NCBI GenBank assembly: GCA_964187785.1
Contig: OZ076409.1
Span: 43,526,001-43,590,000, forward strand
Direction of reading: 5' to 3'
DNA from: Amphiscolops sp. MND2022
Taxonomy: Eukaryota
Length of the DNA: 64,000 bases
This document shows, in pieces, positions 11,581 through 62,320 of this stretch; the first letter of the stretch is position 1, and the number at the start of each line of letters is the position of its first letter. The notes below the pieces were generated by a model. The model saw only the letters and a list, made by a program, of their open reading frames with translations, was not told the DNA's origin and did no database searches. Made by a program: the position numbers and the translations under genes.

Positions 11581-11871
11581 TGGGACTTGCCATATGGCAA
11601 GTCTCAACGTTGCTACTTGGCGAAGGGAGCGAAGCGACCGAGCCATACAACAAATATGCAAAACTAGTCGTAACACTTTTTTCTGGAAAGTTTCCAAAAT
11701 GTCGTTCAAAATTCTTTTCAGTATTGGTCTTCGATGAATTTGTTCCCAGCATTTGCTTGAGTTAGAATGGTCTTAGCGAAACTTGGTGGTCATTTGGGTT
11801 TAAAATAATAGACCAAAACACTTGAGGGGAAAATTCAGTCCAATGGCTTTTAGCCAAGTGACTTCTAACCG
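11581..11871 (+). mobile_element. Truncated MITE: hairpin core B plus AGCCAAGTGACT-type right arm
   Basis: Perfect palindrome GACTTGCCATATGGCAAGTC, then TTGCTACTTGGCGAAGGGAGCGAAGCGACCGAGCCATAC (shared with 24836-24872 and 60976-61015). Ends AGCCAAGTGACTTCTAACC, like the end at 24682-24700. Confidence 0.6.
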
Positions 11872-12272
11872 TTGACAACAACTGGCAATCATCGAAGTTA
11901 AATGGAATCGTATAGTTCTCATTCTTAACGCCTTACATAACTTCATCCAATTGTCGATGCTTTCTTTGACTATGTATACGGAAAGCTCTCCTGCAAATTG
12001 CGGTTTCTACAAATCATATCATATAGGTCAAAGACATTTCGGTGCTTTGCGACATTTACTTGGTGACACCCACTTAGTTACTCGATTATGAAACATTTGT
12101 CCAGCTTTTCACCAAGTTTCTTGACCTCACTTTTTTCCCCTTTGTATTAAATTCAAACATTGGACGCGGGCAAACCTCGATATCAGGGAAGCTCCAGAGT
12201 CAGTTTTAACCTACGCGACAGCACATCTAACTTAATTCGAAAGAGAACAAACTGTATGAAACTTTGCCACGC

Positions 12273-12319
12273 CTTTCTCTCTCTCCCTTTCTCTCTCTTT
12301 CTTTCTCTCTCTCTCTCTC
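12273..12319. repeat. (CT)n-rich microsatellite
   Basis: ctttctctctctccctttctctctctttctttctctctctctctctc. Confidence 0.9.
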
Positions 12320-12518
12320 GAATGATCTGACTTACAAATCTAGTGTCATCTAGTCACTCACTACGGAAGCGACCTCTTTGAATACAAAGAGGTTTGCGAA
12401 CAAAAATATATTCTTGCAATTGCTGTGGTAAACTTATTAACTAGTTGCTGAGAAGTTTACTGAAAGTGAATGCACGTCTGGTTGCTAAACACCTCTTTAC
12501 AGAATGGCATCAAGGGAA

Positions 12519-15500
12519 TCAGTTGCAGACACGTTGATTGTTTGCCGACCTTGATTGGACATTGATTTGTTTGCAAAAAGACTACAGGCTCAACTCTATC
12601 CTGCTAGTTCGTTCCTTTATCTATCTTTATACATGGTCTTCTTTATAGGCGCAAGCTGCTCAGATAACGCCTCTGATTCATTAGAACGCATCATGCAAAA
12701 GGGATTAAAAAGAAAAATTTGTCACAAATCTATAAACCCACACGCCCTTAACAGTAAGAAATAGACCCGAAACTTCTAACAGAGAAATAGAGCCAAAAAT
12801 GGGTAACTTGGCACAATGTGATCAGTATTTTCTTTTCCAAACATTGAAGCAACGGTAATACATCCTGTGTTCATTCAAGAACATAATAGCCGTTATTCTT
12901 CACGTTCAAATGTTCACAAATGTTAAAGAGCATGGGGATTTTTATTCTGGACGTGAAGACGCGTCTCACGTCAACCCGGAAAAGGAACAAGCTAATATTC
13001 AATGCCGACCTCAAGAGAATATAGCCAAATTTTGCGACTGGACGCAAGTTACTTCATACTATATTGAAGAACCATCACACCCTTAGAAATCTGATCAGCA
13101 AAAAAATCTATCTCGGAAAACCAACCATGTCCGAGAAGACGGAAGAAAGCCCAAAAATGCAGTCGTCTAAGTGGGGTAAGTCACTCAAAACAGTCATTTA
13201 AGCTTAGCCGCCTCAGGGGCTTCAGTGTATCAGTAGGAACTTTGTCAAATAACCTACAATAGGTGACTATAACAAAAAGAAAATCAAAAAGGCAAGGATA
13301 TGTATCACTTGCACTAATACTATTGAAAACGAGCCGGCAATTTCTTGCGAATCTTGTGAAAAATTGTCTCATGGCAACTGCGTGGGACACACAAAACAAC
13401 CGATTGAAGTGATAAACGAAACTGAAGTGGCAATGTGATTCTGTAAACCATGCACACCCACAGTGAAAAAGACTATCCAATCAGGCTTGCCAAACTTGCG
13501 TCTTGAACTTGGAAAAACGTCATGACAATCGAAGACAAGGTCGCAATTGGGATTGCACAAATCGAATCTTTAGCTTCCGAAATTTTTGAAATAATTGAAG
13601 GCATTCATGACGCTTGCACTGCATGCAGGTCCTTAGTTTCTGTCCCGAAACCTACATTGATGGAGGTGAACATATTTCTCCAACAATACACTAATACACA
13701 AACGAAACACAAAATGAATTACGCAACGAAAAGCGCCAATTACGCAACCAATTGGAATAAAGATGCCGAAGGAAAACGCCTACCAAATGCTCTAATTGTA
13801 AAAAGAGTCGACACAGGAATCAGCGATGAGACGCTGGCGTGGCAACTCTACACAGACAATGAAAAGGTCACAATCAGACGTTTCATCAAAAATCAAATAA
13901 TGCCCGAATGACCACGGTCAAAGTTGACTCACCAAAAAGATCTTCGTTAGACATCGCATTAGCAAACGACCTTTTTGTCAGACAACTGTTTTTCAGACCT
14001 ACCGAAACCATCGAGAAAACAGATATTCACGTGACCAGATGCTTCTGCAATTTAGCACTATCACGAAATTTGAGTCAAAACTTGCGGGCAATCTCAGTAC
14101 CGATAGCTGTCACCAATCAGAACAAAATTATAAACGTGGCAATTGTCTGAAAGATTACTCTTCATGATCGAGAGATTGCCTTGCCTACCTGAAGACTGTG
14201 GAGAAGTTGTATCAAGGTGGATTGGTACCTCTACTGAAACGATTACAAAACCAAATTGACAGACTTGTCATCAAAAACAAATGACCCGCATAACAATAGT
14301 AATAATGGCAGGTTAATCACTCATAGCTCAAAAGTTTTTTTAACCTGAACCAACGATGGCTCCAAGCAGTCAATTTAACAGAGACACACCGCGAACCAGC
14401 AGCACATGAAGGTATTAACTACTCCGCCATTAGCTACCGTGGGATGACCGGTCAGAGAGGATATTTTATTTTTGTCGGAAAAGATATCACGCACGTACCG
14501 AAAACATTCAATGCTCCTTTTGACTCTGGTTGAACCATTATCATTATTCACAGAGTACCATTTTTTTGGGATCTGTTAACATACTACCAACAAGCAGCTC
14601 AACGAAACTAAAAAGTTTCATCTGTCACCTACAGGAAGCAGTGACTTTTTCCAAAAAACACAACCTCGATCTTCTTCTGGGGGGTCACATTAGTTCCAGA
14701 CACTCAAAGTGGGGAGGGAGAAAGATTGACGAAAGAGCACGGCAGAACTCTCGTGAACGCTTTACATGATCCCTCCAGGTTGTTAAATGTCCTCAACGAC
14801 GGACAACCCACTTTCGTGTCAACGAACGGGAGCAGTGTTGTCGACCTGCTGAGCATTAATGGAGAAGATACGAAAGAAGTCAAATATAAAAAGACTTGAA
14901 GAACGCTAAATAAGAAGGATATTCCGAATTTGTAGAAAACCTACTATTAAAAGTGATAGATTCCAAAACAATGGGCACCAAATCCTCATAATTGTTACTG
15001 AGTTTTTCGAATTTGATTTTCGATTAGCTGATACGCTGACGGTGTGGTGTAGTCTTATTTACCTTGCTTCCTCAGAAGTTTTTGACTTTTGATAATTCTA
15101 CAACCAGCGATTTTCATTTAGAGTTCTGTTTGAAATGTGAAGAAGGACTTCTTTCCATTGCAGCCCTGAACACTGGATCGTTTTGGGGTGGATGGTGTGG
15201 TTATCGAGAGACTTTCTCGAAGTTTTCAAAAAACGCAGGATGTATTCCAGTTCGTCGGAGGTGAAGTCGCAGTTATACCACCTAGTCAAATTCTATCTCG
15301 TGTTTTGCGGAATGTAGGGCTTGTAGTGATTTTTTTCTACTGTTTTCTACTTGTAGCTTGAATTCTTCGTTGAAGCTAAGTTTCTCCGAAAGTTTTCCAG
15401 TGAAAAAAGATTTACGAAATATATCAGCTTTGTCTTTTTCAGCAAAAGGGAATTTTATTCTGTTTCAACAACGGGGTAACTTTGTCAGTCAAAGCTTCAT

Positions 15501-18095
15501 TGACACGCTTCCAAATAGCCTTTGAGTGACTATCGTTAACGTCTTCGATGGAGCTCTACAATATCCGCTTGCTTTGTTGTTAACAATATTTTCAAAAGAT
15601 TGTTTAAGATCTCTCTCAAAAGCTTCGGGTTATGCGCCGTGCTACGGCATGGGTAGTTTTTCAAAATGGAGTTCAGGTTCATGTCTTTCTGAAGCAGTTT
15701 TATTTGCTACTAATTGCCAAATCATTCTCAAACAATTGAAAAGGTGATGCAAAAATTGGAGGATTGCAGTCATTGGTGACAAGACATAAATCATCTACCT
15801 CAACTCTGAGAACACGCATGTCCCATTTTTTTCAGAGAGGCCTGGAAGTTTACCAGAAACACAACAATTGTAGTGTTTGACTATGGACAACAAAATGAAT
15901 TTAAACGAACATCAACGGCGAGTAGAAGGGAAAGTTGCTAAACAGCTGAATACATAAAAAAAGTTTTGCAGCTCTAACTGGTGGCCAAGCAAGTAACGCT
16001 CATAAAGCTTCACAAAACTCTAGTGCTCCCCGACTACTGTACGCGGCCCCTGTATGGGCCAGGAATCACATTCGAGCCTTTAGAATATTCCAATACACCT
16101 CGCTCAAATTTATCCTAGGTACAATTGCAAAGTTTAATCAGTTGGCTGCAGAAATACTTTGCGGTCTCCCACCTATGCAATTACAAATCAACATTTTACT
16201 ATAAAATTTGGAATCAAGCATTCTCAGCATCGGGAGATATTGTTGGGACTGTCGGAAATGTCAATTGCCAAAAATAAGAACCGAAAAAACCTCATTGACA
16301 ATTTTTATAAAGTCACAGGCAGGAAAGTTGGCTGCAATGTCAAATCGGGTATTTTGAAATCGAATTTTTGTGTGATCGAAAAACGAAATCGAAAATGGAT
16401 CGATAAAGTTGAGATCAAGCTGTTTCTGCGAGGTTTGTGCTGCAAAGCGTTTAAAATATTTTAGGCACTTTTCCCCAACTAAAATGGGGTCGTATATGGT
16501 GTATAAAAGCTCGCCCACATCGTTGCAATGGTCAGCTCAAACTACGATCGCTTCGCGATCTCCGTCCCACCTAGGTGTTTGCTCCTGTTCGACCTCGCTT
16601 AGTAAAATGGGAACTTAAGCGGCCCCAAGGTGCCGCGGTGCACTAGAGGAAATGGGGACACATCCGAGGGCTAAAAAGATTATTTGAAAATGCTTGATAA
16701 TTGAGAACATTAATTCGATCTCCTTTTTTGACCATTTTACTCCGATCTCAATGAGGGATTGCATATTCACGCAAATTGAATCGATCCAACCATCCACCAC
16801 CTGCCAAATCCGGCGGTAATTCCATTTCCCAGCGGTTCGATTCCAATTCCAAAAGTTTATAGAAATCAATTACAATTCCAATTCCTGAACGCCTGAAATT
16901 CGGCGTAAATTTTGGTTAAAAAATTTCCAAGTTCTTTTTCGGAATTTTGACACTTCGAATTCCTAACGTCCAATCATTAGAGTCGAAGAACAGCGTCGAA
17001 TCTAGTCGAACTCCTGATGTCGAATAATTGGTGAAATTTTTTCAATTTTCAGTCGAATTATTCCCGTTTGTTTGAATAATATGGCTAATAATACCACTAC
17101 TAACTACACCAAACAAGCCTTTTCCAACCTAATATGAGGTCATATACGGTGTATGCACGTACGCCGTCACCGTCGCGAAGTCCAGCTCCCACTACGATCG
17201 CTTCGCGATCTCCGTTCCCGCTAGGTCTTTGCTCCTGTTCGACCTCGCATTCTGTGACATCTGTTACATTTGTGTCACTGACTAAGGTTCCGATGTGGAA
17301 TAGTTGCCGAATTGAAGGAAATATGGCGCTGTTATATTGATGTTACGCAATCTTCTACAATCTTTGTTTCAACTTAATTTCAGAATTACAGTGTTGTTTT
17401 TGATTATTTCGCCCTATTTTCACTTCCTGTTAGAGTTCTGCAAAGTAGTCTCAACGTTTAGGCAGCCGCGAAGGGGTTATGCCCCGTGGCAATTCCGAAA
17501 GAATATTCAGTTCCAATTCCTGTACTCGGATGTGACTCATTTCTAATTCTCGATTCCTACGGAAGTGTCGATTTTCATTTCCATTAAAATTCAACTAGCT
17601 GACAACCGTGGTCACAGGTACAACAAATGGATACACGGTGTCAACATGCCATGAGTACTTGAAAGGTAGTTGGAAAAAAGTTGACCAACGCGCTCACGAC
17701 TACCACACTGGATTGGATAATCACTCAAATTGAATTGGAAGGGATTGCTTATCCAAAAACGACAAGCAGACACTTAGAGAAAACTATCAGCAAGCTCCTA
17801 AATTGCAACGTGGAAATGGCAGAATATGCATACAAAATTCGTCTAGCAGAGACCCCACTCTGTTCTTGTACAGCAGACACAGAATCAATCCTGCACTAAT
17901 TATTTTTTGCCCTCTGTCTGAGAAGTTCCGTGCACGCGAACTAGCCACAGGAAATATCTATTCACTTGCCTTAGACCACGAGCCTAATAAACTTCAAAGT
18001 AGAACAAGACAGTACTCTACTAGTTGAGAGGCAGAATCTCTGAGGCGATGACTAAGAAAACTCCAAATTTTAATTTATTTACACTGAACTGATAT
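12519..18095 (+). mobile_element. Decayed, rearranged LINE (I/Jockey-like group): SGNH-like ORF, PHD + knuckle ORF1, APE, inverted RT segment, C-terminal CCHC
   Basis: MVFFIGASC.. at ~12633 and WVTWHNVI at ~12800. PHD CITC..CESC..H.NC..*FCKPC at ~13300-13455. Knuckle remnants at ~14030-14190. APE-like LLLGGHISSRHSKWGG and PTFVSTNGSSVVDLL at 14660-14850. Minus-strand ORF2-like piece at ~15000-15850. Post-RT LIKLHKTLVLP at ~16000. ETPLCSC...ESILH...CP at ~17850-17915. Interrupted by MITEs at ~16320-17610. Confidence 0.7.
16479..16670 (-). mobile_element. Hairpin-rich MITE core A (diverged copy) with GATCG-repeat arms (~16330-16800)
   Basis: Reverse complement of the ~190 bp module at 59072-59267 (GATCGCGAAGCGATC hairpin, GCGGCCCC/GGGGCCGC-type hairpin). 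A second partial copy lies at 17128-17248. Confidence 0.8.
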
Positions 18096-21000
18096 CAGGT
18101 GCCAAAAACTTGTTTATCAGTTTAACCCCAAATTTACCATTTTAGGAACTTCGCGAATTCAAATCCGCAGTTTCAGAAGTATCGCGAATTAATAGACGAT
18201 GGATACTATTTCCAACCGGTGGCCTTGGAAATTCAGGGTTCTTTAGGCGAGAGCAGTGAAATTTTCATCACGCGTCTCTGTAAAATGCTCTGTCGTTCGC
18301 ACGATGATCAACGAGCTGGCAGCTTTTTGAAGCAACGGATTTCAAGGGCTCTTCAGAATTACAGTGTTGTTTTTGATTATTTCGCCCTATTTTCACTTCC
18401 TGTTAGAGTTCTGGAAAGTAGTCTCCCCGTTTAGGCAGCCGCGAAGGGGTTATGCCCCGTGGCAATTCCGAAAGAATATTCAGTTCCAATTCCTGTACTC
18501 GGATGTGACTCATTTCTAATTCTCGATTCCTACAGAAGTGTCGATTTTCATTTCCATTAAAATTCAACTAGCTGACAACCGTGGTCACAGGTACAACAAA
18601 TGGATACACGGTGTCAACATGCCATGAGTACTTGAAAGGTAGTTGGAAAAAAGTTGACCAACGCGCTCACGACTACCACACTGGATTGGATAATCACTCA
18701 AATTGAATTGGAAGGGATTGCTTATCCAAAAACGACAAGCAGACACTTAGAGAAAACTATCAGCAAGCTCCTAAATTGCAACGTGGAAATGGCAGAATAT
18801 GCATACAAAATTCGTCTAGCAGAGACCCCACTCTGTTCTTGTACAGCAGACACAGAATCAATCCTGCACTAATTATTTTTTGCCCTCTGTCTGAGAAGTT
18901 CCGTGCACGCGAACTAGCCACAGGAAATATCTATTCACTTGCCTTAGACCACGAGCCTAATAAACTTCAAAGTAGAACAAGACAGTACTCTACTAGTTGA
19001 GAGGCAGAATCTCTGAGGCGATGACTAACAAAACTCCAAATTCTAATTTATTTACACTGAACTGATATCAGGTGCCAAAAACTTGTTTATTAGTTTAACC
19101 CCAAATTTACCATTTTAGGAGCTTCGCGAATTCAAATCCGCAGTTTGAGAAGTATCGCGAATTAATAGACGATGGATACTATTTCCAACCGGTGGCCTTG
19201 GAAATTCAGGGTTCTTTAGGCGAGAGCAGTGAAATTTTCATCACGCGTCTCTGTAAAATGCTCTGTCGTTCGCACGATGATCAACGAGCTGGCAGCTTTT
19301 TGAAGCAACGGATTTCAAGGGCTCTTCAGAATTACAGTGTTGTTTTTGATTATTTCGCCCTATTTTCACTTCCTGTTAGAGTTCTGGAAAGTAGTCTCCC
19401 CGTTTAGGCAGCCGCGAAGGGGTTATGCCCCGTGGCAATTCCGAAAGAATATTCAGTTCCAATTCCTGTACTCGGATGTGACTCATTTCTAATTCTCGAT
19501 TCCTACGGAAGTGTCGATTTTCATTTCCATTAAAATTCAACTAGCTGACAACCGTGGTCACAGGTACAACAAATGGATACACGGTGTCAACATGCCATGA
19601 GTACTTGAAAGGTAGTTGGAAAAAAGTTGACCAACGCGCTCACGACTACCACACTGGATTGGATAATCACTCAAATTGAATTGGAAGGGATTGCTTATCC
19701 AAAAACGACAAGCAGACACTTAGAGAAAACTATCAGCAAGCTCCTAAATTGCAACGTGGAAATGGCAGAATATGCATACAAAATTCGTCTAGCAGAGACC
19801 CCACTCTGTTCTTGTACAGCAGACACAGAATCAATCCTGCACTAATTATTTTTTGCCCTCTGTCTGAGAAGTTCCGTGCACGCGAACTAGCCACAGGAAA
19901 TATCTATTCACTTGCTTTAGACCACGAGCCTAATAAACTTCAAAGTAGAACAAGACAGTACTCTACTAGTTGAGAGGCAGAATCTCTGAGGCGATGACTA
20001 AGAAAACTCCAAATTTTAATTTATTTACACTGAACTGATATCAGGTGCCAAAAACTTGTTTATCAGTTTAACCCCAAATTTACCATTTTAGGAACTTCGC
20101 GAATTCAAATCCGCAGTTTCAGAAGTATCGCGAATTAATAGACAATGGATACTATTTCCAACCGGTGGCCTTGGAAATTCAGGGTTCTTTAGGCGAGAGC
20201 AGTGAAATTTTCATCACGCGTCTCTGTAAAATGCTCTGTCGTTCGCACGATGATCAACGAGCTGGCAGCTTTTTGAAGCAACGGATTTCAAGGGCTCTTC
20301 AGAATTACAGTGTTGTTTTTGATTATTTCGCCCTATTTTCACTTCCTGTTAGAGTTCTGGAAAGTAGTCTCCCCGTTTAGGCAGCCGCGAAGGGGTTATG
20401 CCCCGTGGCAATTCCGAAAGAATATTCAGTTCCAATTCCTGTACTCGGATGTGACTCATTTCTAATTCTCGATTCCTACGGAAGTGTCGATTTTCATTTC
20501 CATTAAAATTCAACTAGCTGACAACCGTGGTCACAGGTACAACAAATGGATACACGGTGTCAACATGACATGAGTACTTGAAAGGTAGTTGGAAAAAAGT
20601 TGACCAACGCGCTCACGACTACCACACTGGATTGGATAATCACTCAAATTGAATTGGAAGGGATTGCTTATCCAAAAACGACAAGCAGACACTTAGAGAA
20701 AACTATCAGCAAGCTCCTAAATTGCAACGTGGAAATGGCAGAATATGCATACAAAATTCGTCTAGCAGAGACCCCACTCTGTTCTTGTACAGCAGACACA
20801 GAATCAATCCTTCACTAATTATTTTTTGCCCTCTGTCTGAGAAGTTCCGTGCACGCGAACTAGCCACAGGAAATATCTATTCACTTGCCTTAGACCACGA
20901 GCCTAATAAACTTCAAAGTAGAACAAGACAGTACTCTACTAGTTGAGAGGCAGAATCTCTGAGGCGATGACTAACAAAACTCCAAATTTTAATTTATTTA

Positions 21001-21275
21001 CACTGAACTGATATCAGGTGCCAAAAACTTGTTTATTAGTTTAACCCCAAATTTACCATTTTAGGAGCTTCGCGAATTCAAATGCGCAGTTTGAGAAGTA
21101 TCGCGAATTAATAGACGATGGATACTATTTCCAACCGGTGGCCTTGGAAATTCAGGGTTCTTTAGGCGAGAGCAGTGAAATTTTCATCACGCGTCTCTGT
21201 AAAATGCTCTGTCGTTCGCACGATGATCAACGAGCTGGCAGCTTTTTGAAGCAACGGATTTCAAGGGCTCCTCAG
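17380..21275. repeat. Tandem array of four 973-bp units (MITE piece + LINE C-terminus + CRE-like RLE C-terminus)
   Basis: Identical ORFs at 973-bp offsets (17681/18654/19627/20600). Junction microhomology TCAGA at 17380, 18353, 19326, 20299 and 21272. Confidence 0.98.
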
Positions 21276-21347
21276 ATCGGCAATGCGGCCTGTGTTCTAG
21301 GAACTGTGAGCGACAGAGATGCGTTCGAAGAAATTTATTACATATAA
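21093..21347 (+). mobile_element. 3' end of a CRE-clade-like (restriction-like endonuclease) non-LTR retrotransposon
   Basis: KYRELIDDGYYFQPVALEIQGSLG...FLKQRISRAPQIGNAACVLGT matches the recalled CRE/RLE C-terminal pattern KY..L...Y.F.P.A.E..G..G...QRIS.A.Q.GNAA.VLGT. Truncated copies occur in each 973-bp unit. Confidence 0.75.
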
Positions 21348-21621: not shown

Positions 21622-21750
<129 letters not shown>

Positions 21751-21950: not shown

Positions 21951-24146
21951 TGTGGTTTTCATTGTAATGCGTCTCGAAATGTTCACAGTATATCTTCAAA
22001 GTGCTTCGCTTTAAATCATCCGTATTGAAGAAATCGATTTTTTCACTTATTTTGTTGAGCAGTCAGCAGGTACGGTAGAAAAAGTTGAACTTGCATTTCT
22101 CATATCTGGTTTGCAGCAATCGAAACGGCCTTCTTGAATTAGGCTGCAAGAATATATATTTCTCCCAATCGATTGAAAATTGACCATTCATTTTTTCGAC
22201 ATCAAACGTACATCCAAAACCTCCAAATAAAGCGTTAAAGGCAGAATTTTTAGTTTTTTGAGTCGTTCAACGTAGTGAAGATCGCTTCTGCTCAAAATCC
22301 ATTTTGTTGATAATTTCTGCACATTTTCCAATTTTTTCATATTACCAACGTTAGCATACCAAACAGAGGAACCATAACTGAGAATTTGCAGCACCATTGA
22401 TTTGTAAAGATTTAACTTCTGTGCAGATCGTAGAAAAGGCGAGCAATTTTTCCTAAGAACTTGAAGAGACTGGATACTTTGTCTTCATGCATTAGCAATT
22501 TGGATGTTCCATGAAAGGTCAGATGATATAATGACACCTAAGTCCTTTTCAAAAATTGATGATTCTATTGGACAATCGGTAAATCCAATGTCACAGTGGT
22601 ACTTGGAAAATGATAGCATGTGGCATTTATTGGCATTCAACACCATATTGTACTTATTGCACCATTGGTCAAGTAGCATAACGTCCTGAGGTAACACATA
22701 GGTCTCTTTTTGACCATGAATAGAGAGCATCTTGGAATCGTCAGTGAAACAATAAAAAGAGGACATCATACCACAAGCAAGTCCATGACATATATGAGAA
22801 ATAATGTGGGACCGAGAATTGATCCCTGAGGCACACCGCTCGATACGTTCAACAAAGAGGATTTATAACCATTGATTTCAAAAAATTGTTTTCGGTCACT
22901 CAAGTAACTACTTAATAAATTCAATAACTTCCCATAGACTCCAATTGACTTGAGCTTCTCTATCAGAATGGCATGATCAATTTTGTCGAATGCTCTTTCA
23001 AAAATGCAAGTATAAGGCTTCGACGCATATGTCGTTTATTTGCACGTTCTTGGAAATTTCATCTAAATAACAGAGTAATTGAATAGTTGTCGACTTTCCT
23101 TTTGTGAAGCCAAACTGTGATGAGTGTAATAACGGGGCAGCAAAACTGTACAAGCTGTCGAAAATACATTTTCCAAAAATCTTCGATAGAATGCACAAAA
23201 GTGTGATTGTTGAGTAGTTGGTGACAAGAGCCCGATTACCTTTTTTTTGAAAAGTGGCTTTACTTTACCAATTTTCCAGAAACTTGGAAAAGTACAAGTT
23301 CGTTTTATCGTGCGAAATAAACCATATATCGAAGTTTTCAAAGTATCCATGCGTTTAAAAAGAACAGGAGGTAGACAGTCATGTCCTTTAGATTTGCTGA
23401 CATCTAGGCATTGCATGAAATTCGATATTTTTTCAAGACTAATATCGTTATCATCGAGTAAAAAGTTTTCACAACCATAGAAATTAGTTAGATCTGAGGG
23501 CGTAGCAAAAACTGACTGGAAACATTTGTTGAAACTTTCACATGCTTCAGGAGTGCTCGAGACAGACTTCTGACCCCATTTCATAACAGCTGGCAACTCG
23601 TGGTTCTTTTTCAATGATTTGAAGAACTTGAAAAAATGCGATGACGATCGAGAATCTGCGTAGGAAAGCTGGTCTGTTTGTAACGCTGAATTTAGACTCG
23701 TTTTCAATTCACATAGTCTTTGTCGATCATGATTAATTTTGTTGACACGTCGACGTTGTGTCTGAGCAATTTTTATCAAATGCGAGGTTGAAGAACTCAC
23801 CCAAGGTGGTAGGTTGTGTCTATGTAATGTTATGATGAGAAATTATTCCGTTAAAATAGCCATTGATACCATTGTTCGAGCAAAACGTCCGGATTGGTCC
23901 AGCAGTAACCAATAAAAGGCGGCAGTAAAATATGATCATTCGAACTGTCAAAAGTTGCACGACAAAAACTGAATTGAACACTGGGAATATTAACTCTGCC
24001 CTCATTGTTCCGCGGTATCTCGATGCTCAGTGAATAGTGATTAGACGCGTGCTTTCCATTAATAGAAAAAGAATCATCAATATTATAGTCCCTTTCAATG
24101 TTGATCACGGGGAAGTTGACAAATACAAGGTCCAGAGTAGAAGTTG

Positions 24147-24700: not shown

Positions 24701-24725
24701 GTAGAAGTTGATGTTGTCTTGAAAT

Positions 24726-25064
24726 GGGTGGCTGTAAATAGGTCGAATTTTTCTGGTCGAAAGGACAGAAGTCGAAACTTTTGACCGAATTGCAGGGATC
24801 GAATGGAGTGCGGTCGAATTCGATCGTATTTGTTGTATGGCTCGGTCGCTTCGCTCCTTTCGCCAAGTAGCAACATTGAGGCATGGCCATGAGGCACGTC
24901 GCTTCGCTCCTGCATTCAGGGCACTAGGGGTATGTGAACATATCTGACTACGTTATAAAAATTTCGATCCGAGTTGTTTCAATCCCATTCAAAAATTTGG
25001 TATGTCGACCTGAGGACTAACTCTGATTTTCGATACCGTTCCTTCGACCTATTTCCGCCCACCC
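24726..25064 (-). mobile_element. Mutator-like MITE (22-bp TIR, core B) with 9-bp TSD
   Basis: TIRs GGGTGGCTGTAAATAGGTCGAA / TTCGACCTATTTCCGCCCACCC. TCTTGAAAT is duplicated at 24717-24725 and 25065-25073. Second copy at 60775-61123. Confidence 0.88.
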
Positions 25065-25136
25065 TCTTGAAATTAACAATTTGATCCATCCTTGTGTCAT
25101 TTAGGAGGTTCGGAACATCAGCTTCATAATCATTTA

Positions 25137-50838: not shown

Positions 50839-51130
50839 ATTCAAAAGTCTTCACAAATAGTCCAAATACAATGCTTCTAAATATGATAAGTTACCGCTCG
50901 GACAACACTGATGACAGAAGTGAAGTGCTAACAGGTGCTTCACGGTCCTCCTTCCAGTTTTTCCGTCACCTATGAGAGAGAAAATGTACACCGGGCTAGT
51001 ATTTTGACTTTTAGCACAACCTTCATAAAAACATCTTTTCACCACATCAGAAAGACCGCAATTTCGTACTTTTAAACGATGCGCCGATGAGATTCTCATC
51101 ATGTTCAACATTTCTGCAGTAATATGGCAG

Positions 51131-51545
51131 AACAAGCCGGGATCGGCATAAGTCAGGGCCATAGCTAAAGCTCAAAAATAGCAAAAGGACGTCAAAGTGT
51201 CAACTATTCTTTTGCAGTACCTGAAAGTGTCAAGCATTTTTACAATACAAAAATTGAGCCAAATTGGCAAACTCACGAAAAACCCAAACGACCGAACTGG
51301 CGCGCCAGGTACCCGCTAGCGCGGGCCCCCGACTTGCTAAAAGGGGACTTTTTCGGGTTTTTTAACATCCCTTGTTGTCAAATATCAAAAAAATGGGGGA
51401 CCCTTTGGGTTTTTCAACATCTATGCCGTCGCAAAACATCAAAATTGAAGGGAGGACCCTTTAGTCTCTCCCGGTATTGTTTGTTACGCGAAAAAGGGCA
51501 AAACTTTTTTGGTTCAGTTTCCGACATGAAGCGCCGACTAAAAAA
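51131..51545 (-). mobile_element. HINE family 1 copy
   Basis: AACAAGCCGGGATCGGC...GAAGCGCCGACTAAAAA, the same termini as 28339-29002. Confidence 0.75.
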
Positions 51546-51772
51546 TTAATCAGGAAAAAAAATCAAATATCACAAAACTGGCTCACCTGAATGAAACAAT
51601 ATTTTTCTAATGATCTACTAGAAAGAAATTGAGTTGTTATAAAACCAAGTAAAAATTATGGAGGGTTAATAAATTCAGTTCATCACAAAAACCGATCTTT
51701 GCAGGATATCGTTGTTGTTTTTCCCAATGAACTGTTTCCTCTAGGTCTACTACAAGTAGCGATATTTGAAGT

Positions 51773-52379
51773 TTCATGAAGTGAAACGCGACTATTATAG
51801 TGACTTTTTTCTATCCACACGAACTGACCAAAATAGTTCTTAAAAGTTCTACAAAATATTATGGTGTCTAATTGCACCATTTGGCCTAGCGAACTGGACC
51901 AAAATGGTTTTACCTGTTTTTCCGCGTAATATATCATACCGGGCGAGACCAAAGAGTCCCCCCTTTCATTTTTTCGGCACTGCGAGACATTTTTTTTCGA
52001 AATTTTTTTTCCTCAAAGGGTCCCCCTGCATTTCTTTGATGTTTTGCGACAGAATGGATGTTGGAAAATCCCAAAAGGTTCCTCCTTTCAGTTTTTTTCG
52101 GCATTGTGAGATTTTTTCCCGAAAATAAAATTTTTTTTTCAATTTTTTCATGTTTTGCGACAGAATGGATGTTGAAAAACCTCAGAGGGTCCCCCCTTTC
52201 AGTTTTTCGGCTTTGTGAGACGTTAGCGCGCCACTCGGTCCATTTTTTGAGTATGAATTTTTTTCAAAAAAAAATTTCGACTTTCGACTACTGTAAACGA
52301 ATACTTGACACTTGGAAGTCTTTTTGCTATTTTTGAGCCTTGGATATGGCGCCGACTTGGGCCGGTCCCGGCTTGTTTT
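51773..52379 (+). mobile_element. HINE family 1 copy (5' tip missing)
   Basis: TTCATGAAGTGAAACGCGACTATTATAGTG ... GGCGCCGACTTGGGCCGGTCCCGGCTTGTTTT; reverse complement of 28339-28990. Confidence 0.8.
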
Positions 52380-52382
52380 GCA

Positions 52383-52883
52383 TTTTTAGTCGGCGCATTT
52401 TAGAAGAAAATGAGCCCGACTATTACAGTGGCAAGTTTTTTTTTCTTTTTTTTTCGTCAGACCACAGAATGTATGCGTAGTGGACACTTTTTACAGAACT
52501 ACTAAAAGTACTGCACCGGCAAGCGGAACCATATCTGAGTTACTGCAAAGGGTCCCCCCTTTCGTGTACTCAATTTTTAACGTAAGATACAAAACCGGAC
52601 GGAACTACAGGGTCCCCCCTTTGAATTTTTTTCGGCACTGTGCGACTTTTTTTTCGAAATTTTTTTAACGTCCCCAAAGGGTCCCCCCTTGGAGTTTTTT
52701 GTTATTTTGCAACAGAATGTGTGTTTATAAATCAAAAAAGGTCCCCCTTTTACATTTTTCGGCACTACGCGACATTTTCCGAAAGAAAAATTTTTTTCGA
52801 AAATTTCAAGTTTTTTCCAAAAAAATGTTTTGCGCTTTTTGAGACTTAGATATAGCGCCGACTTGAGACGTTCCCGTCTTGTT
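52383..52883 (+). mobile_element. HINE family 1 subfamily copy
   Basis: TTTTTAGTCGGCGC ... GCGCCGACTTG-AGACG-TTCC-CGTCT-TGTT: same sub-TIRs, different 3' hairpin sequence. Confidence 0.75.
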
Positions 52884-53842
52884 ATAGTATAACCATAATT
52901 TGTCGGTGCTCCTAGTTAAGTGAAATAGCTACTTTTCTCTTCAAGACAGACTCGATTGCGACGAAACGGATAGGAAAGTTTGTCTAGATATTCCATTTGA
53001 CCTAGTTGCTAGTGCGCTGACTTCCGAGGAACAAAGTTCTAATCGCTGTAGTGTCTAACTTTTGCGCAGACCTGGAGCTGTTCTCGACTTGTTTTTCAAT
53101 CATAATCACGTGCACGATCTTCGGATGGAAGCCCACTTCATCTCCATCGATAACAGGATTCTTTCCCACGTTTGGGCAAGGAAAATCAACGACTCTCTAC
53201 AACTGTATTGCCCTCCAAATTAACTACTCTAAATCAACTATGTTAGAGTAAGAGTTAAACTTCACTTTTTTTCAGCCTAGTGAAAAGATACTTTTGGAAG
53301 TCAACCGCCAGACTGAATTAAGTGTCACATCATATGAATATACAAAACAAAATAATGAATAACAATACATTATGATCAACGATATCATTTACAATAATTT
53401 GTTAAGGAAAATTATCCAACTTAAACCAACATAGTTTTAGACAATATAGAATTTTTCAGGTTCACCAAACATTACATGGCTCCGCATACAACAGCACTTG
53501 CTATAGTTATATAACCAAAACCTTAGACAAATCCTGTCAAGTTTCTCAATAGCATTTCAGAAATGAAACAACAAACTCAGCTGCTGTCAACAGCAGATCG
53601 ATAAGAGCAGATATCAGAGTCCTAATTGTAAGATCACAGATAGATGGTACACAGTTTTGTCTGCTTCATAATTTGTACATCAAACATCCCCGCAAAAGTC
53701 AAAGTGTAGGATATACAATCAGATAATAATAAGTAAGCTGAAGAGGAGTCAAGTAGGTTTTCTCATTGAATGAGCAAATGTTGAGTTGAGTTGATTGAAG
53801 GAAGAGGCCAATTTGGAGAGGGCGATGGATGAGAAGACTAGT

Positions 53843-56800
53843 CTAGAAGACGTTTCCTCGGTTGTCGGGTTTCTTTACCTTGTAGATTCGAACAATCCAG
53901 TGTTCTGTCGTGTAGGCCTCGTCTAACACGTTCAACTCGAAGTCTTTATTTCCGATCTCCACATCTCGCACACGATCAAAACCAGGGGGCTTAGCTGAAA
54001 AAAATACATGTAGTTTCAGCTGAAACCAACACGGGGCCGAACAGTTTAGTTTGAATGCTACATAAAATTGACTTCATAAAACTTTTTCATCACGAAAGCA
54101 AAGAGAAACATTGTTTCAGCTCAATCTACAATTCGAACTTTTGCATCATGAGAGATCTATTTGATTGTGATTCTCATTGCGAATCGAAAATATTTTCGTT
54201 AATAAATCACCCTCGTAATTTCATTAAAATTTCACAAATCGTCACAAGCTAATAAATTCTTGATACGAAGAGCGTTCCAAAAGACAATGGACTTACAGAA
54301 AGCTGGTTTTTAATTTAGTAAATACATGTATTATGCCCCCAGCATGTAAGCGAAAAGGTTAGGGACCCCCCTCCCAAATTAGTGAACAGAAAATTAGTTG
54401 ACACAAAATTAACAAAGGTAGGAATTAGCCAGCGAACAATAAGAACGCCGCTAAATTAAGAAGAGATCTTGTCGTTTACTGGCTAATTATTTGCCTGCGT
54501 CTGTTATAAGCACCCAATAATATTTACTAAAAATAGAAACCTTTTATTTAAGCTTTCTATAAGACCATTGTAAAATTCAGCTTTACCAACAAATGTATTC
54601 TTTTTTTTTGGGGGGGGGGGGGGGGAAGGGGTTGTATCAAGAGCTCGAACAGGAAAGAGCCAGATTCAGTGTATTTCCGAAGTTGAAAAATTGCCAATGG
54701 CCACAATTCATATTCAAAATTAGGTTGAGTTTAATTTTCAAATGTGCAATAACTAGATTCACAGAGTGCAAAAACAGATAAATGGATTCTAGACAACCAG
54801 TGGAATCAAATTTTCAGGAAAAAAATCAAAAACCTACTCAAAACGGGGAAAATTACTGAAAAGTTCTTTCTGCGCCTGAGATTTCACTTAATACTCCATC
54901 TAAATTGAAAATGAGAAGAAACCATTTTGATTGGTTGCTAACGGCCTCAGCACATAGGGGGATGATTTCATCACAATATTTGATTTACTCAAAATTTGTC
55001 AGGAGTCATTGAATGCATGCATTTCCATGCCACGCTCTTTCCTGAGTCAGAAATGAATGCATAACACAGATGTAGCATCTTTCAAGTCCAACTAATGTGT
55101 TCTACTGCATTCAATACCAAAACACAACTGCATACTTGCACATAATGGCATGATCGAGTGAGACTAGGAAAGCAAACACGTTACTAACAGCCGTCAGTGT
55201 AAACTTGTCCGAATTTGTAGTAGCACATTTTGTACATCATGCAATTCAGCAACGTGGGACTTCCTTCTCGGTCTACTTTGAATTCCCCAGCAGATGTGTA
55301 GTAATGCTCTTCCTTGATATGTTTGCCCAGCTCTGTGTTTCCCCCGATTCGAACCATCCACAAAAATTTGTTGATGTCGTCAGAGGAATATCCGACGAGA
55401 CCTGAAGTCATTAATTTTGTTGACAGAATTGAATAGCAACCCTATTTTTCTAGTCAAACCGAAGACACAAAGCACTAGAGAAGATTGGAACGTATTCGCA
55501 GTAAATGTTTCCGAGCATCGCAATATAATCAGCAATATGGCAGCCAAGGCTCTCAACAAAACAGAAAATGAGTTGATATTTCTGTTCCCCATTAATTTTT
55601 AAAATTGGTATCTTCAAAGTTGGAGAGAAATTTAATAGTAAAAACTGAAGTTTCAACCCAACTTGGCCATTTTTCGGCCAAACAGTTGTTTATTGCGTTT
55701 CATTTGCGAACTATTACTTCCGCCGACCTCCGAGATTGGGCAAACCAGGCGTAGGTGTTGCATGATAATTGGAATTTTCTTCAAAGGTTTTGTTTTGGTT
55801 TTCCGACAAAAAATTGTTATACCTCCGAACACTACAAGTACGTAGTCCACATCCAGTTGTTTCATGATGCCATAGGCGTGTTCCTCGGTTGAGCTCATGG
55901 CTTGGCCCACTCTAGATATGTGCGTGTTGTTCCACGTGTTGTTGTCCACCAGGATCGTACGGTTGCCCATGGCAGTTATCTGGTATCCGTAATCCCACCA
56001 AGACATGATCTTTGAGTCCTGAAACCAACAGAGTTTTTTTCACAGAGAACTTTTTTGTCTATGGCACTTCCCAAAGAAAGATCGAATATCTTCTGCATTA
56101 GTTCGATTCAACAGGAAATTGAACATGAAAAAATATGAAGGCATCAGTGGTAACGGAGCTTCAAGTAGAAAATTTGACTTTCCAAAAAATAAAAAAAGCA
56201 ATAGCTGACCTCGGGCGTGTTTTTAGCCAACCACCTGTAAGCTTCTCGGAAGTCGTCGAAGATAATCCGGTTTCCATCGTGACCCTTGGCTCCCAGCACA
56301 ATTGAGGGACTAGAGTAAGCTTCGCTAGTTACCCAGACACAGTGCATAGCATACATGGACAGGAACACAGTCAACATAGCCACCACTCCACACGCGACCT
56401 CACCCTTTGCGGGATAATTCCAGTCACTGTTTCCGGCGTACTTCTTACTAGTTCCAACAGACTTGCCGGCTCCACTCGTCTGTTTGTTAATGAATTCCAC
56501 GTAGTTCTTCATGTACAGGTTCAGAACAGCGTTGAGGCCTATTCCCCCAACAACGCACATGATGGGAGCCAGCACTAACATCAAACGTACCATGACACCC
56601 TACCAACAGAAATCTTCACTCAAGAAAAGCATAACTATTCACAGCACAAGCAGTTGAATCTGATACTCATTATGTTGCTATTTTTAGTGAGAAACAGCAA
56701 ATGACAAAACGATACTTACGGCAAAATAGATGCTTGTAATTCCGTACATAATGACGAAGATGTTCTGTTCTGTCAGTTTTGTGAAGCAGTAATACATCCC

Positions 56801-58402
56801 AACTGAAAACAGAAAATATACAAGAACAGATCATGTCACTGGTCAACTTTTGAGGATGACGCTAACCTGGAAACATGATAACGAGCATATGCAGATCAAA
56901 GTAGAAAGAAGACCAGGCAGTAGGCTGATGCTCAGAAACAGATGCAATGATGGGAATATTGTTCTTGGCATAGCTAGGGTCCAGTAAAGAATAGAATCTT
57001 CCAGTCCATGGTGCAATCTAAATTTATATAGTTCTTGATTTACATAGCAATTTATTGAGATTAAATCTGAACCCATTGAACTTGTGATGTGACCCACCTT
57101 GCCGAGAAGTTGAAGAATGGTAGCAGCCGCGACAGCTCCGCCAACACTGACTACCAAGAAACATTTAACGAGGTAGAAAAAATCAGCGTGGGACAACTTT
57201 GCTCTCAAGTATTCGACAAAAGCTACTATTTGACACAGTCCAAATACACCGAAGGCTGCCATATGTTCACTCGTTTCGACGGGTTGAAACCCAACGAACG
57301 GAATCTGCATAGAGAGCAAAGTTCCAAGGCAGTACACCGTGGTATATGCTACGTAGATCTTATGAGAGAAGCGCCCAGTTATCATGATAACAAGCACATG
57401 AAGAGGAATCAAGTTGATGAGGAACACATATCCACCCCATGATGATACCATGTAGAAGTAAGCCAGAGAACACATGACACTCCAGAATATGGACCCGGTT
57501 TTCACTGATTTGATCCACAGTGTGTAGGTGAGCATCATACAGAAAATCGCAATACCCTCATTATCGTAAGAGCCAGCAACTGATCGGGAGATATAACCTG
57601 GTACGGCTGAAATCATTGCAGCTGCCAACAGACCGGCGCCGACGCTCTAAAAATACAATTTCCGTTCAATTGTATTTAACTAAAAGCAATCTTATATTAA
57701 AGGCTGGAGTTGAAACTAACGTAAACTTCCTTCGTGAATTGGTACGTGATTAGAACAGTGAAGGAAGAAAAGACAGGGGCCAGAAATACACAAACTTCTC
57801 GCACATCAACCGTCAAATTGAACGTGTTCAGAATATTATAGATGAATGCTGATGTTACCATCAAACCTTGAAAAGACGTTTTAGATACAAAGTGAAAATA
57901 ACATCGCCTTTTTCAAAGAGTAACAAATCATATTTTATTTTAAATCTAACCAGGATAGATCGTTCCACCAATAATACGTCCCAAGGGATACCATGCTGTG
58001 TCATCGAACCAATCAAGAAACTCGTAAAATCCTTCTTCAGAAAGAAACTTCGTCGTTCGGTAATTGAAGTAGCTAGGAAGAGGAAGCGTATGATAATTAA
58101 TCACCCATACAAAATTTAATTTTAAAAACATACGCTGTAAAACTCACGGATCAAACTCGTGAATAACACTCTCAAAGCGAATGACCGCAAAAAGACGCAC
58201 AGAAAAGGCTGAAACAATTTGAAACACTTGATAGTGAAATTCAGAAATTCATGAAAAATCTGATTTCAAAACAAGGTGACGTACCAAGAATAGCTGCAAT
58301 TGAAAGAATCAGGAGCTTCAGCAACGACTCCTGTTTTGCAAAAGAAAACTTTGAGGATGCTAAGGGCAACTGGAAATTGAAACTCTCCGCCGAGAAAACC
58401 AT
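53843..58402 (-). CDS. STT3A: Oligosaccharyltransferase catalytic subunit STT3A, ~726 aa
   Basis: Exons 58402-58285, 58208-58148, 58072-57951, 57866-57721, 57646-57098, 57017-56867, 56802-56720, 56599-56210, 56018-55823, 55401-55189 and 53994-53843. All GT-AG with consistent phases (2181 nt). Motifs [86 protein letters not shown]. The short N-terminus and LLKLLILS motif favour STT3A over STT3B. Confidence 0.96.
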
Positions 58403-58735
58403 CTCTGAAACGATACATACAATGCAATATGAATACAGGCAATCAATTTCAATCAACTGTTATGTTCAAAGTTGTTCGAGTTTTATTGTTCTTACGCGAC
58501 GATTGAGTCACTCTTCTACAAACTACTACTATTACTACTAAAACGTTTTGACGTAGAATTTTTTTCCCACAAACTGGATCATTAAATTCTACAAACTGGA
58601 TATCGTTCACACAAGATCCTGAGAGCTCCACCGCCTAAGATCTAGAGGAATAAGATCTAAAAACTGAAATGTGGGGCATATCCGGTGTATTCACCATCGC
58701 CTACTCCGTGGCAAAGACCCACTACGATCTGCGTT

Positions 58736-60306
58736 CCGGATACGGGACAATTTGCCGAAAATTGACTCAGGGACGATTTGCCGAATAATTTTCGGCAAAT
58801 TGTCCATCACGTTCGGTAAGGGTGCGGCGAATAGGTCCGAATGCCGATGACCGAATTGCAAGAAAGAAGTCCGACTATTTCAACAAGGCTATAAGTCAGA
58901 AAGAATAAGTTCGACTGGGATGCAAAATGGAAGAAATACGAATGACTTAAACCTAACGAAGTCCGAATCGGTTTTTTATGAAAAAATAGTCAATTGTTAT
59001 GAAAAACTAACGAGATTTAAGGCGATTTTTTGCAGAATGGACGAAATTTAACGCGGTTTTTTTGAGTACAAAACGTGCCTCTGATATTTACCCATTTCCT
59101 CTAGTGCCCCGCGCCCCCTTGGGGCCGCTTACATTCCCATCTTGCTAAGCGAGGTCGAACAGGAGCAAAGACCTAGCGGGAACGGAGATCGCGAAGCGAT
59201 CGTAGTGGGAGCTGGTCTTTGCGACGGTGAGGGCGAGCGTGCATACATCGCATATGCCCCACATTATATAATGTGCTACAAATGCTACAAACTTGAGTTC
59301 AGAGGTACAAATTGTCAATATAAAGTCGGAAACATCAACTTTGAGGACACAGAAGAAGTTAAAGACCTTGGCATCTTTGTAAAAAAAAGATCTCAACTGG
59401 TCAGCACATGTTAGCAGTAGGTTGAAAAAAGCCTATAATGTTTTGTTCTCCCTCAGGCGGAACATTGCGTACAATGTTAAATCTAACACTAAGCTGAACC
59501 TGTACAAATCGCTGGTACTTCCGACCGTCACCTATGGACTTTTTTGTGCCAAACAATCAAAAGCCATCATGAACGCTTTAGAGAGGCTCCAGAAGAAAGC
59601 TGTGAAATGGATAATGGGCAACAAACAGACTTGCTATGCTAACAGTTTGAGGCTACTGAACATTTTGCCGCTACCAATGTTTGTGCAGATGAACGATCTC
59701 CTACTTTTTTCATCGCTTACCAGAGGAAACCTGGCGAACATTTTGAACTTACATACCAAAATGACTTGCAGCGCACGCAGACCCATGAACTATCAAATGA
59801 AAATCCCCCGGACTGAGAGAAGCCGCAGCGAATTTTTCTTTAGGAATTGTTAGATCGTGAACAAGGTTAATAATTGCTTTGACATTGGCAACGGAATGGG
59901 TGTCAAAGACAGACTTCTCTGCGATATGTGGAGACACTACAATAACCAGTTCGACGAAGACAACTCTTGTACATGGTTAAGGGTGTGCGACTGTGGACAA
60001 TGTAGAATCAGGGGACGAAGATGTTAGAAAGAATTTGGGAGCAATCCCATCAGCGAAAGCTGTAAATCCACATCAACAACAACAACAACAACAATAAACT
60101 AAAAGTCTCTGCCATTTGACAAATTCGAACTATTTCCAAAAAATCGCACGTTCGAACTTAATCAGTCGGTCAGTTTTCGGTCTTAATCGATTCGGACTTA
60201 TTCTTTCGGACTTATGGTCGGACTAAAAAACTCGGACCTATTCTTTCGGACCTATTATGACAGTCCGTTCGGCAAATTGTCTTTCGGGGAATTGTACCGT
60301 ATCCGG
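58736..60306 (+). mobile_element. TIR MITE (CCGGATACGG TIR, GTCCGAA-repeat arms, core A at 59072-59267) carrying a CR1 insertion; itself inserted in a diverged core A
   Basis: CCGGATACGGGACAATTTGCCGAAA vs TTTCGGGGAATTGTACCGTATCCGG (22/25 inverted match). The flanks 58668-58735 and 60306-60319 join into a core-A-like sequence. No clear TSD. Confidence 0.7.
59270..60095 (+). mobile_element. 5'-truncated CR1/L2-group LINE 3' end with (AAC)n tail
   Basis: VKDLGIFV..LNWSAHV..KLNLYKSLVLP..LERLQKKAVKWIM..LNILPLP..EFFFR..CTWLRVCDCGQC*, then CAACAACAACAACAACA. Confidence 0.88.
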
Positions 60307-60350
60307 TTTTTGCTCCTGCGAAGTGTTTGAAATAGATCAGGAACTTCCCA

Positions 60351-60585
60351 CCTAATATGGGGTCATATGCGGTGTATGCACGCTCGCCCTCACCGTCGCA
60401 AAGACAAGCTCCCACTACGATCGCTTCGCGATCTCCGTTCCCGCTAGGTCTTTGCTCCTGTTCGACCTCGCTTAGCAAGATGGGAACATAAGCGGCCCCA
60501 AGGGGCCGCGGAGCACTAGAAAAAACGAGGACATATCCGAGGCACGTTTTATGCTTTGCATCATTCCTACATTAATGGTCTTATC
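60351..60585 (-). mobile_element. MITE core A copy
   Basis: Near-exact reverse complement of 59072-59267 and 61340-61535. Confidence 0.85.
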
Positions 60586-60774
60586 GTTTTTCAATTCCAG
60601 AAATCTACAAACTGGTATTTTTCAAACTGGACCTAACCAGTTTGTAGAAAACCAAACAAGATAATACAGGACGTTTCGGCATGAAAAATTTGCCGGAACG
60701 TCTCGAGGTTTTTTTTGCCGAAACGTCCTGTTCCCGTCTTTGCGACGGTGAGGGCGAGCGTGCATACACAGCAT

Positions 60775-61123
60775 GGGCGGGCGGAAATAGGTCGAAGGAA
60801 CGGGATCGAAAATCAAAGTTAGTCCTCAGGTCGACATACCAAATTTTTGAATGGGATCGAAACAACTCGGATCGAAATTTCTACAACGTAGTCAGATATG
60901 TTCACATACCCCTAGTGCCCTGAATGCAGGAGCGAAGCGAAGCGGAGCGACGTGCCATATGACCATGCCTCAATGTTGCTACTTGGCGAAGGGAGCGAAG
61001 CGACCGAGCCATACATCAAATACGATAAAATTCGACCGCATTCATTTCGAACCCTGCAATTCGATCAAAAGATTCGACCTCTGTCCTTTCAACCAGAAAA
61101 GTTCGACCTATTTACAGCCACCC
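60775..61123 (+). mobile_element. Mutator-like MITE (GTCGAA arms, core B), second copy
   Basis: Reverse complement of 24726-25064 including TIRs. TSD not retained. Confidence 0.85.
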
Positions 61124-61176
61124 CATAAGCGGCACCAAGGGGCTGTGGGGCACTAGAGGAATGAGGACATACCTGA

Positions 61177-61674
61177 GAGCTACGTAGAATCAGGTCTAAT
61201 GAAATAGATCTAAGAGAGGGGACAAGACTGGGATCTAAATAAATTGATCTGAATAATCAGGTCTAAAAATCTCTTTTAATTTCATCTAATTTCTAAAAAG
61301 TCAATTAGGGTCTAAAACTAAAAAGTGACATAAAGTATAAAACGTGCCTCAGATATGTCCCCATTTCCTCCAGTGCCCGCGGCCCCTTGGGGCCGCTTCT
61401 ATTCCCATCTTGCTAAGCGAGGTCGAACAGGAGCAAAGACCTAGCGGGAACGGAGATCGCGAAGCGATCGTAGTGGGAGCTGGTCTTTGCGACGGTGAGG
61501 GCGAGCGTGCATACATCGCATATGCCCCACATTATATTTTCGCTTTCAGAAAACATATTAGATCATAAAGGGGTTAGACCTAAGTATTTTGGATAAAATT
61601 AGATCTGAAAGTTAGACCTAACAGTTAGATCTAATTCAATTAGACCCAAGCAATTAGATCAAAGGCGTGCACTC
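61177..61674 (+). mobile_element. Mutator-like MITE (GATCTAA/TTAGATC arms, core A at 61340-61535) with 9-bp TSD
   Basis: CATACCTGA (61168-61176) / CATATCTGA (61675-61683). G(G/A)TCTAA repeats on the left face TTAGA(C/T)C repeats on the right. Inserted into another core-A copy. Confidence 0.7.
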
Positions 61675-62320
61675 CATATCTGAGGCACCTTTTAAACTTT
61701 GTATCATTCCTACATTATTGGTCTTATTTGTCCGCGCCGATCCTAGTGTAATTCGGAATCTTTATCTTTGCGGCGGACCATCCTGGCTTTACAGGCAGTT
61801 GAAAACGTTCTTTCAAAAAGAAAGAAAGTTTCAGTGAATTCAGAGAATGAGGGTTAAATATTTATGAAGAACGTAGCTCCTGTGGTTGACCAATTGTGGC
61901 TAAGTTTCCGCTAAGATTCGGCATAAAGCGGGAAAGCACCGAAGAGAGGAAGCTCGAAAGCGTTGAAGCATGTTATGAAACGATCAATTTTTAATCGGTG
62001 GAGAAGTAACTTGAGCAGAAATTCCCAAATATAGCCAATCAAAGGTCAAATACATGACAATCAAGATAGAACAGCAGATAATTTATCAATCTTTTAACAT
62101 TTTATAGCAATTTTACCAATTTTGCTATTTTCGCGAACTTTTTGATGAATTCAGAGCAGTTGTATTTCCATCTAAAATTTTCGTTGTCAAAGCAGATTCT
62201 ATTTGTGACATGCTCAAACATACCGCACGCCTCGATCAAATTGAACCATTAGGAGAAAACAAAGCGATTAGAGTTTCAACTAGAATAAGAGCAATTGGCC
62301 TGACTTTTGGTAGTATTTTT

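Follow-up and report, generated by a model that had tools for sequence, protein, structure and literature searches.

MITEs (miniature inverted-repeat transposable elements) that combine different ends with a common interior are known from corals, and a related arrangement has been described for a Drosophila transposon. The CMITE families of Acropora corals are piggyBac-like elements of ~100 bp with a TTAA target site duplication (TSD), CC[C/T]T termini and terminal inverted repeats (TIRs) of 13–14 bp. Origin and role of their shared interior were left unresolved by the authors, and a role in transposition was proposed (PMC2872659). In Galileo of Drosophila mojavensis, one central region (98% identical) is found with the TIRs of three subfamilies (77%), which was ascribed to ectopic recombination and conversion (PMC3573991). 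We analysed a stretch of 64 000 nucleotides from the marine acoel Amphiscolops sp. MND2022 (contig OZ076409.1, positions 43 526 001–43 590 000), referred to as the window and numbered from its first letter. It is eukaryotic, repeat-rich and about 38% GC, and it holds short elements in which two interiors, core A and core B, are combined with arms of several types. With moderate confidence we interpret these as Mutator/Foldback-type MITEs the interiors of which have been exchanged between families. The evidence on the elements is confined to this one window.

The acoel elements share with the CMITEs the combination of families having different TIRs with an interior more conserved than the ends (core identity of 92–96% here, as opposed to unalignable arms). 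They differ from them in length (340–550 bp), in their long repeat-array arms, and in the presence of two alternative cores with a common border. Since their TSDs are 9–10 bp long and not TTAA, and their termini start with G and not with CC[C/T]T, membership in the piggyBac-like CMITEs was rejected. Like Galileo, the elements are Foldback-like, with one centre accompanying several TIR types. Galileo, however, belongs to the P superfamily, with 7-bp TSDs and TIRs that are 77% alike, whereas the acoel arms cannot be aligned beyond a heptamer and the centre contains a sharply conserved hairpin block. In view of these precedents (PMC2872659, PMC3573991), the premise of an earlier interpretation of this DNA made without database searches (the sequence-only reading), namely that interiors are usually not shared across families, had to be given up.

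The arms resemble those of Muta1 from Aedes, which has 8–9 bp TSDs and a TIR architecture matching that of the acoel elements (PMC5225508), and of Tm1 from Meloidogyne, which has asymmetric ends and a conserved class of hairpin-bearing interiors (PMC3169594). In all of them the TIR consists of a short terminal motif with subterminal repeats, TSDs are 8–10 bp long and non-autonomous derivatives are numerous. In Muta1 and Tm1 as described, however, one TIR family is found with varied interiors, whereas here one interior occurs across several arm families. For the P-MITEs of Anopheles gambiae, interiors have been proposed to come from gap repair off an ectopic template, as we propose below for the acoel cores. 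P-MITE interiors are AT-rich, however, and the available part of that report does not describe one interior across families (PMC1562414). Mutator-like elements (MULEs) are the largest class of DNA transposons in an acoel genome, accounting for 5.7% of the Praesagittifera assembly (PMC6451197). We found no literature on acoel MITEs, and the set is probably undescribed; the families may already be present in repeat libraries, since Repbase, Dfam, most subscription journals and supplements were outside the search.

A profile search with nhmmer detected five full copies of core A in the window (16474–16689 and 60348–60564 on the plus strand; 24346–24562, 59058–59272 and 61325–61540 on the minus strand; E-values 1e-68 to 1e-77) and four partial ones (17125–17249, 58667–58736, 60736–60775 and 61125–61186). 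Core B was found by profile search in two full copies (24820–24959, plus strand; 60879–61029, minus strand) and one partial copy (11580–11658, minus strand). This agrees with the sequence-only reading, which had counted about nine copies of core A and three of core B, and from which we retain approximate start positions as names for single copies. Among the five full A cores, four have pairwise identities of 92–96% over 165 nt; the fifth, the 16479 copy, is 83–86% identical to these four. In the 150-bp flanks of the full A cores only the 12–23 nt next to the core are common, and beyond them the similarity is no better than that of shuffled sequences, except for a left flank of ~60 nt common to the 16479 and 60351 copies. 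Because core identity reaches 92–96% across families with unalignable arms, arms and core did not diverge together. The core borders are staggered, with left and right extensions that are common to changing subsets of the copies.

Cores A and B have a common 3' border, as had been claimed before (scores of 33–36 versus shuffle maxima of 25–28). In addition, a linker of 14–18 nt past the core border occurs both in an element with core A and GGCTTAA arms (24322–24338) and in one with core B and GGTCGAA arms (24945–24958), with a score of 31 versus a shuffle maximum of 27. A weaker likeness to the core-B border is present at 58572–58612.

The elements, as delimited, have imperfect TIRs starting with G, inward-pointing arrays of family-specific heptamers and no coding match. 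Core A lies between GGCTTAA-repeat arms at 24146–24699 (minus strand; strict core about 24373–24537, with an invariant block, described below, at 24435–24537), between GGTCTAA/GATCTAA arms at 61177–61674 (minus strand; core about 61352–61515, block 61413–61515) and between GTCCGAA arms at 58738–60304 (minus strand; core about 59083–59247, block 59145–59247). The last of these is interrupted by a 3' fragment resembling a long interspersed nuclear element (LINE; about 59290–60099). A diverged core A (16500–16664) belongs to an older element at 16318–16805 (plus strand) with GATCGA arms and GGCAGG termini. Core B lies between GGTCGAA/GATCGAA arms at 24726–25064 (plus strand; core 24835–24944) and in a second copy of the same family at 60775–61123 (minus strand; core about 60895–61014), which has two core-A fragments in opposite orientations on its flanks. 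Inverted arms had been proposed for every intact core; they are present at both full B cores and at four full A cores, but the fifth A core, the 60351 copy (60348–60590, plus strand; core 60373–60537, block 60373–60475) has family-specific flanks without a recognisable inverted arm pair.

TSDs were searched at the ends of seven elements, six of them two-ended and one, the copy at 11581, one-ended. Three of the six two-ended elements have a TSD, in line with the earlier claim of 9–10 bp TSDs in three elements: 10 bp with one mismatch at 24146–24699, a perfect 9 bp at 24726–25064 and 9 bp with one mismatch at 61177–61674. At a fixed border, a match of this quality would arise by chance with a probability of 6e-6 to 1.6e-4. 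Ungapped TIR matches are 15/20 and, at 24726–25064, 17/20, while the GATCTAA family requires a gap. Both ends start with G in six of six elements as delimited, three of which were delimited by the TIR match only. Elements adjoin and sit within one another; the one at 61177–61674, with its TSD, is located inside the 3' border of another core-A copy.

The mixing of arms and cores is real in both directions. Beside one core with several arm types there is one arm type with different cores, a direction seen in a single truncated copy at 11581–11869 (minus strand), which consists of the 5' half of core B (11581–11648) and one arm, its left part having been lost at a tandem-duplication junction. This arm (11740–11869) and the right arm of the 24146 element are homologous (42/62 ungapped; score 69 versus a shuffle maximum of 32). 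The first of them adjoins core B, with the same polarity, whereas the 24146 element carries core A; the earlier statement that one type of end carries core A at 24147 and core B at 11581 thus holds. The duplication itself comprises three tandem copies of a ~3.7-kb unit (477–11581; 94–95% identity), the right junction of which truncates the core-B element at 11581. In this copy, the 10-bp palindrome of core B is lengthened to a perfect 20-bp palindrome (11583–11602).

In all five arm families the family heptamer is found two to seven times, in both arms. The most enriched motifs are GGCTTAA, GGTCGAA, GGTCTAA, AGTCCGA and GATCGAT. They had been treated as differing from element to element but are not unrelated: in 5000 draws of GC-matched random k-mers, none was as alike as these five, for 6-mers as well as 7-mers, and two heptamer variants occur together within single arms. 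The likeness beyond random k-mers and the co-occurrence suggest that the arm heptamers are related variants and that the ends form one clade. A mini inverted-repeat element of 64 bp (60667–60730) has perfect 14-bp arms with GCCGAA, no core and no evident TSD.

Conservation within core A is concentrated in a block of 103 nt. Among the four similar A copies there are two changes in 412 sites of the block versus 17 in 248 sites of the next 62 nt (p = 3e-6); the block boundary was picked after the data had been seen, and none of 300 permutations with a re-scanned cut point gave such a contrast. Identity per 20-column step is 97–100% in the block, then 90, 86, 80 and 73%, and then at background. 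This stepwise fall, together with the staggered borders, is of the kind that conversion tracts would produce. The 24368 and 59072 copies, separated by 35 kb and assigned to different arm families, show one difference in 103 block positions, whereas the arms of two copies within one family differ at 18 of 229 (Fisher's test, p = 0.01). Between the decay of the block and that of the TSDs there is no significant difference (1/206 versus 2/38, p = 0.06). The 16479 copy behaves differently: 15 of 103 block positions are changed, and its block is not less affected than its 3' part (p = 0.64).

The TSDs and the arm architecture make membership in the Mutator superfamily likely, and the Mutator affiliation given by the sequence-only reading is supported in the sense of a Mutator/Foldback-like anatomy. 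Termini starting with G are typical of MULEs without being diagnostic, and the TSD length of Merlin elements is similar. We propose that related Mutator-type transposases would act on the elements in trans, each heptamer variant being the putative binding repeat of a different one, so that arms would diverge with their transposases while interiors would be free to move. A gap between the arms, left by excision or a break, could be repaired from an ectopic high-copy MITE via the short homologous borders common to A and B. Such repair would put the current core between the arms of another family, and the chimera might then amplify and found a new family. The block of about 100 nt would be kept uniform by repeated conversion, perhaps initiated at the break-prone hairpin. 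The core may contain a functional module, but exchange of interiors would not require any function of it.

Several observations weigh against this interpretation. No TSD was found at 60775–61123, 58738–60304 or 16318–16805, that is in half of the two-ended elements, nor at the one-ended copy at 11581; the two-ended ones among them are older or lie in nested or truncated contexts. No MULE-type transposase match was obtained with the 96 of 172 open reading frames (ORFs) of the window that were scanned. Three of the four near-identical A cores are located within 2.5 kb and are therefore not independent. Arm families with core A are represented by one element each, which makes family-fixed and copy-private changes inseparable. 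In the sole same-family pair, core B (4/110) is not significantly more conserved than the arms (18/229; p = 0.16). Moreover, if the block were selected at every transposition, the pattern of conservation would be the same as under conversion.

Such selection would be expected if the hairpin block were a cis-acting module, either a site bound by the host or the transposase or a DNA structure aiding synapsis or excision, which raises transposition whatever the arms. This is compatible with an exchange of interiors, and we regard it as possible rather than probable. The low number of block changes relative to the adjacent 3' part fits such a role, the more so as the block contains 12 CpGs; likewise, private changes of the 60351 lineage, counted by eye, affect four of 53 positions in the 3' part versus one of 103 in the block (p = 0.046). 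Internal transposition enhancers are known for mPing (PMC12595863) and have been proposed for the CMITEs (PMC2872659). Yet the block of the 16479 copy is no better preserved than the 3' part of that core, the boundary was chosen post hoc, and the other Foldback-like elements of the window (28.3–29.0, 39.2–40.0 and 51.1–52.9 kb) have neither core.

Folding gives a divided answer. Whole core A folds no better than shuffled sequences (z of −1.1 as RNA and −0.9 as DNA), but its 5' ~100 nt form one nested stem-loop on either strand (z of −2.3 to −3.4), as a cis-acting structure would. Core B, which takes the place of the block, does not fold better than shuffles (z of −0.1 to +2.5). The description of both cores as hairpin-rich is therefore retained for the 5' part of core A and dropped for core A as a whole and for core B. 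Folding programs may underrate GCGAAGC mini-hairpins, which are present in both cores. Covariation is lacking at the low power provided by five distinct sequences: none of 20 pairs changed on both sides and six of 100 cells are unpaired, which also speaks against a maintained structure in the block. Rfam contained no family at gathering score, and the two weak matches, far below it, do not lie on a full core. Both strands fold alike, and the earlier idea of a structured RNA is not supported.

In a bolder form, the block would be a portable, arm-independent module: a general enhancer of Mutator-type transposition, or a self-spreading, break-provoking hairpin copied by conversion, a parasite of MITEs. 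We offer this tentatively, as an idea with a modest chance of being correct. A conservation of MITE interiors above that of the ends would thereby be accounted for. Should the block not affect mobility, the acoel set would be an ordinary case of interior exchange.

That the core is an independent mobile element, a non-autonomous Helitron or a short interspersed nuclear element (SINE) which inserted into MITEs or was captured by them, we consider unlikely. Core A has an 18-nt palindrome followed after 6 nt by CTAG, which is similar to the 3' end of a Helitron, and the full 60351 copy without an arm pair could be taken for a free-standing unit. A palindrome shortly before a 3' CTRR, with the element ending there and a target T following, is characteristic of Helitrons (PMC3789558). 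In the seven full cores, however, it is always an A or G and never a T that comes after CTAG (which reads CTGG in one copy), and homology continues for at least 20 nt; a Helitron was rejected on these grounds. Direct repeats of 5–7 nt and inverted repeats of 5–8 nt around the seven full cores are like those of random window pairs. A SINE was rejected as well: with consensus patterns for RNA polymerase III promoters, no A box was found in the seven full cores and the sole B-box-like match lies in an arm, the search for tRNAs found none, and the cores have no tail. The staggered borders likewise argue against a unit with ends of its own. The earlier view that cores were swapped between arm families and not independently inserted gains support from the same results. 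An ancient Helitron end may nevertheless have been captured into the ancestral interior.

Other origins were rejected. Core A is not a tiny unit with long terminal or other direct repeats, as the likeness of its 5' and 3' parts lies within the shuffle range (score 17 versus a 95th percentile of 18), and a captured host exon was dismissed, the ORFs over the cores having no Pfam match. Cores as insertion hot spots were not used as main evidence, there being one clean TSD case (61177) and all cases lying in one cluster. The core that seems to be split at 58737/60305 gives an ambiguous picture, its right piece scoring 37 against the left flank of the 16479 copy and 24 against core A. Exact-pattern scans with core A gave no match in viral contigs or GTDB genomes and one in metagenomes, on a contig that has a short palindromic repeat, lacks extended homology and is, in our reading, chloroplast petB/petD; blastn against phages and plasmids found no match. 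For core B the scan of GTDB was negative. An 18-mer of core B is present in 14 viral contigs, in most cases among similar GCGAAGC-rich repeats, with similarity limited to ~45 nt or less and no extended homology. These viral matches appear to reflect convergence on the GCGAAGC-type motif, possibly a convergent motif of mobile DNA.

The sharing of cores could be real and the uniformity of the block an assembly artefact, if short-read polishing of a very high-copy repeat had overwritten copy-specific variants. Uniformity would then be expected to peak inside the repeat and fall toward its edges, and such a fall is seen. But the uniform part is the 5' half and not the centre, and the 16479 and 17128 copies retain many differences in the block, which makes this explanation very unlikely. 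Least probable of all, to our mind, is that the block serves the host as a structured RNA or regulatory element, being spread by MITEs and maintained by selection on the host: low block divergence and the position of the 3.2-kb MITE cluster directly upstream of the STT3A gene would fit it, but there is no covariation and no Rfam match at gathering score, folding is strand-symmetric, several copies in the cluster are broken, and MULEs are known to prefer insertion near genes (PMC5225508).

Interior exchange thus remains our preferred reading. What determines the success of MITEs and where their interiors come from are open questions. The acoel set allows a cleaner test of them: there are at least four arm families, the two alternative cores have a border in common, and the conserved block has sharp limits and can be deleted or swapped. 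In practical terms, repeat libraries clustered on interior similarity would merge distinct arm families in acoel genomes.

The remaining core copies are fragments. At 16975–17249 (plus strand), a GTCGAA-type left arm is followed by the 5' half of core A (17125–17249), which stops where the invariant block ends. A short GATCTAA-type arm with a diverged (78%) 5' fragment of core A at 58621–58737 (plus strand) is broken at the GTCCGAA element. The two fragments flanking the second GGTCGAA element are a 5' fragment at 60736–60774 (minus strand), the end of which lies inside the 5' stem arm, and a 3' fragment at 61124–61176 (plus strand), which belongs to the same family as the 60351 copy and resumes at 61675–61730 past the inserted GATCTAA element.

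The pile-up of MITEs at 58.5–61.7 kb lies just upstream of STT3A (53846–58402, minus strand; putative start codon at 58402), which is context and not part of the elements. Of the full-coverage matches to one exon of STT3A, the best is a protein of Symsagittifera (87% identical over 99% of the query); a Toxocara entry with a higher score is 65% identical and looks like a doubled model. The adjacent MITEs at 24146–25064 are flanked by remains of a decayed LINE (22188–25779), namely fragments of its endonuclease and reverse transcriptase.

Further repeats are found elsewhere in the window. At 17379–21276 a 973-bp unit is present four times in tandem (~99% identity). Next come a TA microsatellite and a stretch of N at about 21.6–22.0 kb, and the arrangement could be an assembly artefact. 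Broken ORFs at 46953–49247 resemble, by eye, an envelope/fusion-type gene of a decayed long terminal repeat element and have no Pfam match. A further family of Foldback-like repeats, having longer internal repeats and lacking both cores, is present at 28339–28988, 39198–39673 and 51127–52884. Two long inverted-repeat pairs, with arms kilobases apart, are nested in each other (39467–40001/44062–44553, outer; 40766–40954/43175–43455), and a GCGAAGC-type motif is doubled at the inner end of the outer pair.

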